From Candidatus Brocadia sp. (GTDB lineage Bacteria; Planctomycetota; Brocadiia; Brocadiales; Brocadiaceae): 32,000 bases of DNA. The notes below the pieces were generated by a model that saw only the letters and a program-made list of their open reading frames with translations, was not told the DNA's origin and ran no database searches. Shown in pieces: positions 18,519-20,026 of this stretch (within the stretch, counting starts at the first letter, position 1; every line of letters starts with the position of its first letter). The translations under genes were made by a program, and so were the position numbers. The DNA is taken from contig CP091279.1 of NCBI GenBank assembly GCA_021650915.1, positions 30,001 through 62,000 of the forward strand. The letters are read 5' to 3'.

Positions 18519-20026
18519 GTAATATGAAAAAGCAGCGTCCTTCCAAGGAGGTTAAAAAGCCTTGAATAGGCGATAACCTTTTGTGATATTAAATATCATA
18601 AAGGCTTTAGACCACCAATTAAGGTGGTAAGTCTTTAAACCTTGGAAAGGAGGCTGTATGATAAAGTATATAGGATTGGATGCACATTCGTCAACATGTA
18701 CATTCAATGTGACGGATGAAAGAGGGAGGGAAGTAGACAACACTACGATTGAGAGCAATGGCCGGCTTTTGGTGAAGTATGTGAGGGGAGTGGAGGGTGT
18801 TAAGAAACTGACCTTTGAAGAGTGTGAATTAAGCAACTGGCTGTATGAGATATTGAGACCAGAAGTAGATGAGTTGATCGTATGCAATCCAGTAGCAAAC
18901 GGAGACTACAAGAAGAAAAAGACGGACAAGATGGATGCCAGGAAGCTGTCGAATCTTTTGCGAGGAGGTTTTCTCGTACCGGTATATCATGATGGTTCAA
19001 AGAGGGAGAGGTTAAGGAGTTTAATGTCCGGGTATCAGGATTTCATTGAAGAGGGTGTGAGGCTAAAGAACCGATACAAATCCTTATTTCGGAAAAGTGG
19101 GAAGAAAATCAAAGGTGAAGCGTTATATAACGACGAGAGTTTCCTGGAAGGATTAGAGCGAAGAGACTTTCAATTTATTGGCACGCAGATCTATCAGCTT
19201 TTAGAGAAGATGGAAGAAGGCAGGCAGGAATATGTAAAAGAGATCGTTCGATGCAGTAAGGGATTTAAAGAGATAAAATATCTCAAGAGCATTCCCGGCA
19301 TTGGGAGTATCCAGGCGGCGAAGATCGTATCACAGGTAATAGACCCGGAGAGGTTTAGCAGTAAGTACAAATATTACAGCTACTGTGGGTTGGTGAGGCA
19401 TAAGAGGATAAGTGATGGGAGGGGATATGGGAGTGAAAAGATTTGGGGAAATCGGATATTAAAATGCGTATACAAGATGGCAGGACATTCGGTTTTAAAG
19501 GGTAAGAGCGGTTTAAGGAACTATTACGATACCTTGCGGTTGAAAGGCATCGGTCATGACAATGCCTATAATGCAGTATGTCGTAAGATAGCGGCAATAT
19601 CTTTAAGCGTGTGGAGGAAGAGTGAGAAATATAATGACAGACTGATCACTGGCAATCTAATCAAGTAAAACAGGGCAAGAGGGCATGAAAGGCTGGTTCG
19701 CACCTGTTTTCTTGAGAGAGGGATGAGATCCACGTGTCATTGACCCAAAGAGGTCCAACGCAATGGTTGATCCGCCCTCGTTTAAATCGGAAATTACCAT
19801 GCTCAGCAAAGAGCACCGATAGATGACTGAAAACCGATTGCCGAAGGTATTTCATATTAAGGTAATAGAAAGAGAACGATAATAATCTGTTTGTCATTCA
19901 TGCACTCAGGACTTTATGGCTTGATTAGCCTCAGTTAAGCGGAAGGGACGCATGGCAAGAAAACATTTCTTTGGTTTTTTTGTCAACAGGGATAATATTT
20001 TTTCTTGACATGCTTTTTCATAGATG
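18519..20026 (+). mobile_element. IS110-family insertion sequence (ends inferred from the interrupted repeat)
   Basis: This segment separates the two halves of a dispersed repeat. ATG is present at both junctions (18516-18518 and 20024-20026). No terminal inverted repeats were seen, as expected for this family. The right end could instead be about 20098, because a second partial repeat copy follows. Confidence 0.65.
18658..19668 (+). CDS. IS110-family (DEDD) transposase/recombinase
   Basis: The N-terminus YIGLDAHSSTC is the DEDD motif. The C-terminus is IPGIGSIQAAKIVSQVIDPERFSSKYKYYSYCGL. GGAGG lies 6 nt upstream of the ATG. Confidence 0.9.
   Translation: MIKYIGLDAHSSTCTFNVTDERGREVDNTTIESNGRLLVKYVRGVEGVKKLTFEECELSNWLYEILRPEVDELIVCNPVANGDYKKKKTDKMDARKLSNLLRGGFLVPVYHDGSKRERLRSLMSGYQDFIEEGVRLKNRYKSLFRKSGKKIKGEALYNDESFLEGLERRDFQFIGTQIYQLLEKMEEGRQEYVKEIVRCSKGFKEIKYLKSIPGIGSIQAAKIVSQVIDPERFSSKYKYYSYCGLVRHKRISDGRGYGSEKIWGNRILKCVYKMAGHSVLKGKSGLRNYYDTLRLKGIGHDNAYNAVCRKIAAISLSVWRKSEKYNDRLITGNLIK

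Follow-up and report, generated by a model that had tools for sequence, protein, structure and literature searches.

An apparently intact IS110-family element of probable IS1111 type in Candidatus Brocadia sp. and the guide RNA predicted in its right end

Insertion sequences (ISs) of the IS1111 group have subterminal inverted repeats of 7–17 base pairs (bp), a short left end and a long right end, and their bridge RNA is encoded in the right end (PMC11208160). In the seekRNAs of IS1111 elements, the segment that matches the top strand precedes, in the 5' to 3' direction, the one that matches the bottom strand, which is the reverse of the order in the IS110 type, and Siddiquee et al. proposed for IS1111 elements that the RNA lies within the transcript of the junction promoter (PMC11187229). 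We studied a 32,000-nucleotide (nt) stretch of the genome of Candidatus Brocadia sp. (contig CP091279.1), which is referred to as the window and whose first letter is position 1. An insertion of 1508 bp at positions 18519–20026 is an IS110-family element. We consider it very probable that this apparently intact element is an IS1111-type member of the family and that it encodes its own guide RNA.

The element shows the architecture of the IS1111 group, i.e., a 12-bp subterminal repeat, a left end of 139 nt and a right end of 358 nt, and a predicted RNA downstream of the gene. The guide order is also that of IS1111, as GUGUCAU, which would pair with the top strand, starts at 19734, and CGCAAUG, which would pair with the bottom strand, starts at 19759. 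The strand assignment is the same as in IS621, with left guides on the bottom strand and right guides on the top strand, core included. Like the IS1111 elements ISEc11, ISPa11, ISKpn4 and ISPst6 (Siddiquee et al. 2024, PMC11187229), the element encodes a transposase in the range of 330–350 amino acids (aa) with a DEDD domain and PF02371, and it shares with them subterminal inverted repeats, a long downstream non-coding region, a predicted circle junction promoter and the absence of target duplication. As in the ISEc11 group, the top-strand match of the RNA is the 5' one, the two matches overlap in the target, and natural reprogramming is seen among relatives. The element departs from that group in its highly divergent protein (only a weak profile match to IS4321), in its target, an anammox hairpin repeat, in the 139-nt structured leader of its left end and in its second inverted-repeat block; moreover, it is known here from sequence alone.

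IS621 and the IS110 group (Durrant et al. 2024, PMC11208160; Hiraizumi et al. 2024 and 2026) resemble the element in that the bridge RNA has two loops, with a left and a right guide for the target and likewise for the donor; every guide overlaps a core of 2 nt, and the left guides measure 7 nt with the core counted. Further common features are insertion into a palindrome like the repetitive extragenic palindromes (REPs) and a promoter across the joined ends. In contrast to IS621, the predicted RNA is encoded downstream of the gene, in the right end, and each loop has its guides in the opposite order; the core is TG instead of CT, subterminal repeats of 12 bp take the place of those of 2–3 bp, and a consistent handshake-guide signal was not demonstrable. 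With IS4321/IS5075 (IS1111 family, plasmid R751), a profile alignment of 246 columns spans both domains and takes in the D, E and DxxD motifs as well as the serine loop GLV....S/T-G, whereas BLASTP gave only a local match of 47 residues with 30% identity. ISPpu9/ISPpu10 of Pseudomonas putida (REP-targeting, IS110 family; PMC12288879) are likewise multi-copy elements in REPs with a small RNA gene downstream of the transposase; however, ISPpu9 has orphan copies of its RNA gene, and the module here occurs only inside the 11 element copies. The element exemplifies the mechanism described in 2024 and is not a new kind of system.

The preliminary description had read this part of the window as an IS110-family element that splits a dispersed hairpin repeat. 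The features concerned are as follows.

18519–20026, plus strand: insertion sequence; 11 copies with 99–100% identity and the same ends
18440–18518, plus strand: left flank, formed by one hairpin-repeat arm; aligns with the intact repeats in reverse-complement orientation, with the same junction in 11 copies
20027–20058, plus strand: right flank, in which the repeat resumes as ACACGG...CATACGG (sequence and joined-flank alignment)

All positions given for the element and for the split of the repeat were verified on the sequence. The left repeat arm closes with ...CCCCTCGCAATG at 18518, and ACACGGACT resumes at 20027; read at the junctions, CTCGCAATG ends at 18518, G stands at 18519, and ACACGG begins at 20027. 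The insert starts with GTAATATG at 18519 and ends with ...TTGACATGCTTTTTCATAGATG at 20026. When 18440–18518 was joined to 20027–20059, the product aligned without gaps to the reverse complement of 28683–28843 and 29211–29339, and the alignment passed through CCCTCGCAATGACACGG uninterrupted at the junction. The joined flanks restore the repeat and the protein matches both PF01548 and PF02371, which bears out an IS110-family element inserted in the hairpin repeat. The left target CGCAATG occupies 18512–18518, with the left copy of the core TG at 18517–18518 and the right copy at 20025–20026. We assigned the core TG to the right end; the element boundaries are ambiguous by this 2-nt core.

The 4.05-Mb genome contains 11 copies with 99–100% identity. 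The junctions CGCAATG/GTAATATG...CATAGATG/ACA and the termini were identical in 11/11 copies, and insertion was always at CGCAATG/ACA in an arm of the dispersed hairpin repeat; no copy had other ends or lay outside this repeat family, the finding that would have spoken against the preliminary description. The insert lies in one arm of the repeat in 5 copies and in the other arm in 6, because the palindrome presents the target word on either strand. Unoccupied CGCAATGACA was counted 266 times in the genome, compared with 7.4 expected from base composition, and the repeat motif ATTGCTTCG was found near 234 of the 294 CGCAATGAC sites (90-nt context window). The occupied fraction of target sites is ~4%.

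The 336-aa open reading frame (ORF) is kept in 9 of the 10 full-length copies. The remaining one (G000:C1:597386-598893) has a 1-nt insertion, and its recombinase ORF stops at codon 112; it is otherwise full-length. The eleventh copy (L012/L011 = G000:C1:3812912-3816272) is broken at recombinase codon 4 by an element of 1847 bp, which has a 7-bp TATATAG duplication and encodes a 419-aa DDE_Tnp_1 transposase. The identity of 99–100% among the copies, nine of them with the full ORF, points to recent movement and makes it very unlikely that the element, with the anatomy described here, is now an inactive relic in this genome, even though the element is present at only 11 of ~280 target sites, one copy carries a frameshift and a further copy is split by another IS. 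The D that follows the catalytic serine, in place of the G of the canonical SG motif, would also suit a relic, but S-D and S-A variants are common in the clade of relatives, including multi-copy elements, and the guides match the target perfectly.

The preliminary description had offered both non-coding ends as candidates for a bridge RNA. All four guide words were found in the right end, and the predicted bridge (seek) RNA is encoded there, at 19718–19834 (~117 nt). It consists of the following features.

19718–19779, plus strand: predicted target-binding stem-loop (alignment A2, compensatory changes in helices 1 and 2)
19733–19740, plus strand: predicted right target guide CGUGUCAU, complementary to the top strand ATGACACG at 20024–20031
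19759–19765, plus strand: predicted left target guide CGCAAUG, identical to the top strand of the left flank at 18512–18518 and so pairing with the bottom strand
19780–19834, plus strand: predicted donor-binding stem-loop (conservation of helices 3 and 4)
19793–19800, plus strand: predicted right donor guide AUUACCAU, complementary to ATG+GTAAT (joined core and left-end start)
19819–19825, plus strand: predicted left donor guide AUAGAUG, identical to the terminal 7 nt of the right end (20020–20026)

At the DNA level, GTGTCAT at 19734 in the right end is the right half-site ATGACAC in reverse complement, and CGCAATG at 19759 is the left half-site; ATTACCAT at 19793 is the reverse complement of ATG+GTAAT, and ATAGATG stands at 19819. 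In 200,000 shuffles of the right end, all four guide words occurred together in none and three of them in 5. The four words form the internal-loop strands, in nested order, of the two stem-loops, indicating that the right end holds a structured RNA with complementarity to both target and donor, as the preliminary description had required of one of the ends.

We assessed the structure on alignment A2, which comprises 57 non-redundant RNA modules. Helix P1 (19718–19730 with 19769–19779) showed compensatory changes in 10/11 pairs, and P2 (19742–19745 with 19752–19755) in 2/4. P3 joins GUUU at 19780–19783 to AAAC at 19831–19834, with compensatory changes in 3/4 pairs, the variants GCUU/AAGC, GUGU/ACAC and AUUU/AAAU, and pairing kept in 97.8% of cells. 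P4 (GCUC at 19801–19804 with GAGC at 19811–19814) is invariant but for one compensatory change. Across the 57 sequences, standard pairs were present in 96.4% of cells and both sides changed in 16/23 pairs; when the 3' partner was slid by 1–3 columns as a control, pairing was 35–51%. RNAalifold gave P1, P2 and P4 independently, and P3 was added after its variants were seen. A basal stem of the donor loop drawn by eye from a single-sequence fold, AUCGG/CCGAU, was not conserved in relatives and was replaced by GUUU/AAAC. The single-sequence fold of 19669–19900 was uninformative (z = -0.76), and the structure is carried by comparative analysis only. We found no orphan copies of the RNA in the genome. 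The window copy has a unique G at 19790, an unpaired and variable position in the donor loop. Further downstream, two haplotypes of the element exist in the genome, as 4 copies are of the window type and 6 differ at 19855–19874. In the window haplotype, 19850–19859 is a perfect 10-nt complement of the left-end start at 18520–18529 and makes a local hairpin.

Next, we compared guides and insertion sites among relatives. Protein relatives numbered 802 at E ≤ 1e-20, mostly on metagenome contigs of 1.2–2 kb, and we retrieved 24 loci from genome assemblies and 80 from metagenomes (L numbers). The assemblies are labeled as Brocadia, other Planctomycetota, Omnitrophota, Elusimicrobiota, Firestonebacteria, Nitrospinota and one Nanoarchaeota bin. 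The right-end RNA module is conserved across the retrieved relatives. For the left target guide, 46 distinct guide/flank pairs with 17 distinct 7-nt guides were available, including CGCAATG, TAAGATG, TAGCCTG, TCTGATG, CAGAATG, CAGGATG, GGGAATG, ACTGGTG and TTACGTG. At the five variable positions per pair, guide and left flank matched at 222/230, compared with 102 +/- 8.5 and a maximum of 138 in 10,000 shuffled pairings; with one representative per guide class, 83/85 matched and ~30 did so after shuffling. The match rate was 91–100% at positions -7 to -1 (91% at -7) and collapsed to 15% at -8; therefore, the left guide is exactly 7 nt long including the core. For the right target guide (72 pairs), the match at positions 4/5/6 after (A)TG was 100%/96%/75%, far above shuffled pairings, fell to 47% and 43% at positions 7–8, and was at chance level further out. 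In the window copy, the match extends to 8 nt (ATGACACG).

A short shared core without target duplication, as had been suggested, stands, but the core is TG and not ATG. In several relatives (L023, L080, L099-L104, L115), the left flank ends in CTG or GTG and the right end still ends in ATG; therefore, the shared core is TG. The A of 'ATG' in the Brocadia genome is a coincidence of target and donor.

On the donor side, the left donor guide and the right-end terminus are both invariant in all relatives. In the right donor guide, UUAC is invariant opposite the invariant GTAA, and position 5 pairs in 24/39 relatives (A:T in 17, T:A in 7), with A:C in 10. We looked for handshake-guide covariation of the IS621 type beside the left donor guide; L018 fits (AUGAU, flank ATGATT), and L023, L026, L061 and L102 do not. 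Two relatives showed unusual arrangements of the module. At L065:1567-1700, the right end (..CCATAGATG) runs straight into the sequence otherwise found behind the left donor guide in the RNA gene, an arrangement suggestive of recombination of an element end with guide-coding DNA from a different copy. At L109:2316-2990, two RNA modules lie 636 nt apart.

The guide-like words of the right end could instead be binding sites at the DNA level, with the protein and not an RNA picking the target. The words, however, lie in internal loops of helices with compensatory changes, which is an RNA-level constraint, and one word is sense and the other antisense, as RNA pairing to both strands needs. The donor-type words are invariant, so RNA pairing is unproven for them, and a second inverted-repeat block (18535–18544/19942–19952, see below) gives the ends more DNA symmetry than the 12-bp repeat. 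Against this, 17 target classes are tracked by the guide although the proteins are still 59–98% identical, and the same design is experimentally RNA-based in ISEc11 and IS621 (PMC11187229, PMC11208160). Target choice by the protein therefore appears exceedingly unlikely to us.

The left end was assessed in the same way, and it is occupied by one structured feature.

18541–18646, plus strand: predicted structured 5' leader of the transposase mRNA (RNAalifold, 29 relatives)

The outer stem of the leader (18541–18548 with 18640–18646) encloses three hairpins, and the leader ends right before the ribosome-binding site AAGGAGG at 18647–18653. Of the stems that had been proposed for the left end, the outer CCTTCCAAGG/CCTTGGAAAGG and ACCACC/GGTGGT agree with the comparative structure, whereas the middle pair had to be redrawn as AGGTT/AACCT plus TAAAG/CTTTA. 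The structure is strong and conserved, with compensatory changes in 16 of its 23 pairs, and IS110-group elements place their RNA in the left end (PMC11208160). On this view, the 139 nt ahead of the recombinase gene would encode the bridge RNA, as they do in IS621-like elements, and the nested stems would be its loops. However, once the terminal repeat is set aside, no word of >=6 nt in the left end matches the target on either strand, all four guide words are in the right end, and the variable sequences that track the flanks are also located there. We ruled out a left-end bridge RNA for want of complementarity to the target and give it almost no chance; the left-end leader is a conserved predicted structure and not the guide RNA.

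We then examined the element termini, which carry the following features.

18523–18534, plus strand: left subterminal inverted repeat TATGAAAAAGCA, 12/12 complementary to 20011–20022, 4 nt from the end
20011–20022, plus strand: right subterminal inverted repeat TGCTTTTTCATA, partner of the left repeat
18535–18544, plus strand: second inverted-repeat block GCGTCCTTCC, matching the reverse complement of 19942–19952
19942–19952, plus strand: right-end partner of the second block GGAAGGGACGC (alignment A4 against A3, by eye)
18520–18525, plus strand: predicted -10 box TAATAT (TAATAT 20, TAACAT 13 and TAAAAT 7 of 40 distinct relatives)
20005–20010, plus strand: predicted -35 box TTGACA (TTGACA 31, TTGACT 7 and other hexamers 2 of 40 distinct relatives)

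A perfect subterminal inverted repeat of 12 bp lies 4 nt inside each end, and the 16-nt TGCTTTTTCATAGATG occupies 20011–20026. The second block adjoins the 12-bp repeat at the left end; at the right end the two are 58 nt apart, with a hairpin and the -35 box between them. In L016, L018 and L054, the sequence of the second block differs in a coordinated way at both ends (by eye, alignments A3/A4). It may serve as a binding site in the DNA or allow the 5' and 3' parts of an RNA to pair over a long distance. In the last 100 nt of the right end, RNAalifold paired GGAAGG..GCAUG with CAUGCUUUUUC, with compensatory changes in 4/11 pairs.

Joining 20026 to 18519 yields TTGACA-17 nt-TAATAT. The -35 hexamer is at the same right-end offset in 40/40 distinct relatives, and the -10 hexamer is at left-end positions 2–7. 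The offset of the -35 box is constant; therefore, the spacer is fixed at 17 nt. A consensus promoter that exists only across the joined ends, which had been noticed in the single sequence, is thus conserved with fixed spacing in 40/40 relatives as a predicted promoter.

The recombinase gene is the sole long ORF of the element (18658–19668).

18658–19668, plus strand: DEDD/serine recombinase (transposase), 336 aa, PF01548 and PF02371

The protein matched PF01548 (DEDD_Tnp_IS110) at E 5e-11, over the cut-off, and PF02371 at E 2.6e-10. The candidate catalytic residues are D8, E55 or E57, D90, D93 and S252. In alignment A1, D8, E54/E55/E57, D90 and D93 are invariant or nearly so, and they align to the motifs of IS4321. 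S252 is invariant in the relatives, and the residue after it is G, A or D. The serine loop reads GLVRHKRISDG here, with R for the P of G-L-x-P-x4-S/T-G and D after the serine. As reference transposases, we used ISEc21 (IS110 type) and IS4321 (IS1111 family). BLASTP gave local matches only, to IS4321 and ISEc21, whereas hhalign of the clade profile covered 246 columns of IS4321 at E 4e-6 versus 94 columns of ISEc21 at E 0.009, a difference in the direction of the IS1111 group. A search of solved structures gave only a weak C-terminal match, 9mty. Residues 119–299 of the recombinase matched NCBIfam NF052498 (TIGR-Tas RNA-guided endonuclease) at E 9e-16, with 58.5 bits, below the cut-off of 100.

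We propose the following course of transposition. The DEDD/serine recombinase (18658–19668) would excise the element as a circle, and the joined right and left ends would create the promoter TTGACA-17 nt-TAATAT. The predicted circle junction reads ...CATAGATG-GTAATATG... (...TTGACATGCTTTTTCATAGATG-GTAATATGAAA...). The junction promoter would transcribe the leader, the recombinase gene and then the RNA of 19718–19834 as a 3' untranslated region. The RNA would fold into two stem-loops, each with an internal loop, and in the donor loop AUUACCAU and AUAGAUG would pair with the joined element ends. All four guides would overlap the TG core as the site of strand exchange, and insertion at CGCAA-TG-ACA without target duplication would follow from this overlap. 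As the target word lies in both arms of an abundant hairpin repeat, ~270 safe landing sites would be available. We infer circle formation, promoter activity, co-transcription or processing of the RNA and RNA-guided strand exchange by analogy with IS621, ISEc11 and the relatives.

Several points weigh against an IS1111-type element with its own guide RNA. Expression, the circle junction and transposition of the element are predictions from sequence. No sigma-70-like plus-strand promoter was found between the stop codon and the RNA, so RNA production is likewise predicted; in the absence of an internal promoter, the RNA would most simply be the 3' part of the junction-promoter transcript. The donor guides are invariant in the clade and supported by matching, not by covariation, and the right donor guide has CA, the bases fully complementary to the core, in only 8/39 relatives. 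A gathering-score scan of the whole window against Rfam 15 gave no relevant match. With E up to 10 for 18300–20300, there was again no match in the right end, which is weak evidence, as a bridge RNA model in Rfam 15 is uncertain. The protein scored 130.1 bits against NF033542 (NCBIfam equivalog), below the cut-off of 140, and its identity to any plasmid-borne IS110-family transposase is <=27.6%. Its assignment to the IS1111 branch is putative and is based on the architecture and on a single weak profile comparison. We kept IS110 membership at the family level because both Pfam domain models pass.

The surroundings of the element were also inspected. The right-hand repeat is truncated after CATACGG and is followed by an unrelated 30 nt and then by a partial repeat unit (window 20059–20170), which has its own unoccupied CGCAATGACA at window 20092 (genome 50092). 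The element sits in a rearranged cluster of repeat units. Elsewhere in the genome, two loci near 1161872 (-) and 2273799 (+) on G000:C1 contain only the last 19 nt of the right end (ACATGCTTTTTCATAGATG) within the target and read CGCAATG-[19 nt]-ACA. Their breakpoint follows TG inside the -35 box (TCTTG/ACATGC) and resembles the core plus the right half-site; these loci may be scars of aberrant excision or an old repeat variant. Among relatives with differing targets, the left flanks (L013-L114) have the hairpin form GAT-xxx-TTCG...CTC-xxx'-ATG. The stem words are ATTGC/GCAAT, ATTCT/AGAAT, ATCCT/AGGAT, ATTTC/GAAAT and ATTCCC/GGGAAT, and the left target guide follows them. The hairpin repeat superfamily seems to span several phyla.

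Two further ideas, neither of them shown here, are doubtful when taken together. The clade may have diversified together with the cross-phylum superfamily of hairpin repeats; among relatives from Planctomycetota, Omnitrophota, Elusimicrobiota and others, the stem word xxx of the left flank differs between hosts, and the left guide differs with it. The element may also have a second layer of RNA control, made up of the conserved four-way-junction leader and of the block 18535–18544/19942–19952, which might close the full-length transcript or switch the leader; if true, such a layer would be one so far undescribed for the family.

The element leaves the understanding of the mechanism unchanged. 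In the host genome, it accounts for 11 insertions and shows the hairpin repeat to be a landing pad. For the family, it adds a well-resolved, naturally reprogrammed clade to the RNA-guided recombinases that are in development as genome-editing tools. This clade comprises ~100 relatives, with at least 17 different left target guides and a donor loop that does not vary. Its proteins have diverged far from those already characterized, and its guides follow clear rules, as the left one has 7 nt with the TG core counted and the right one about 5–8 nt.

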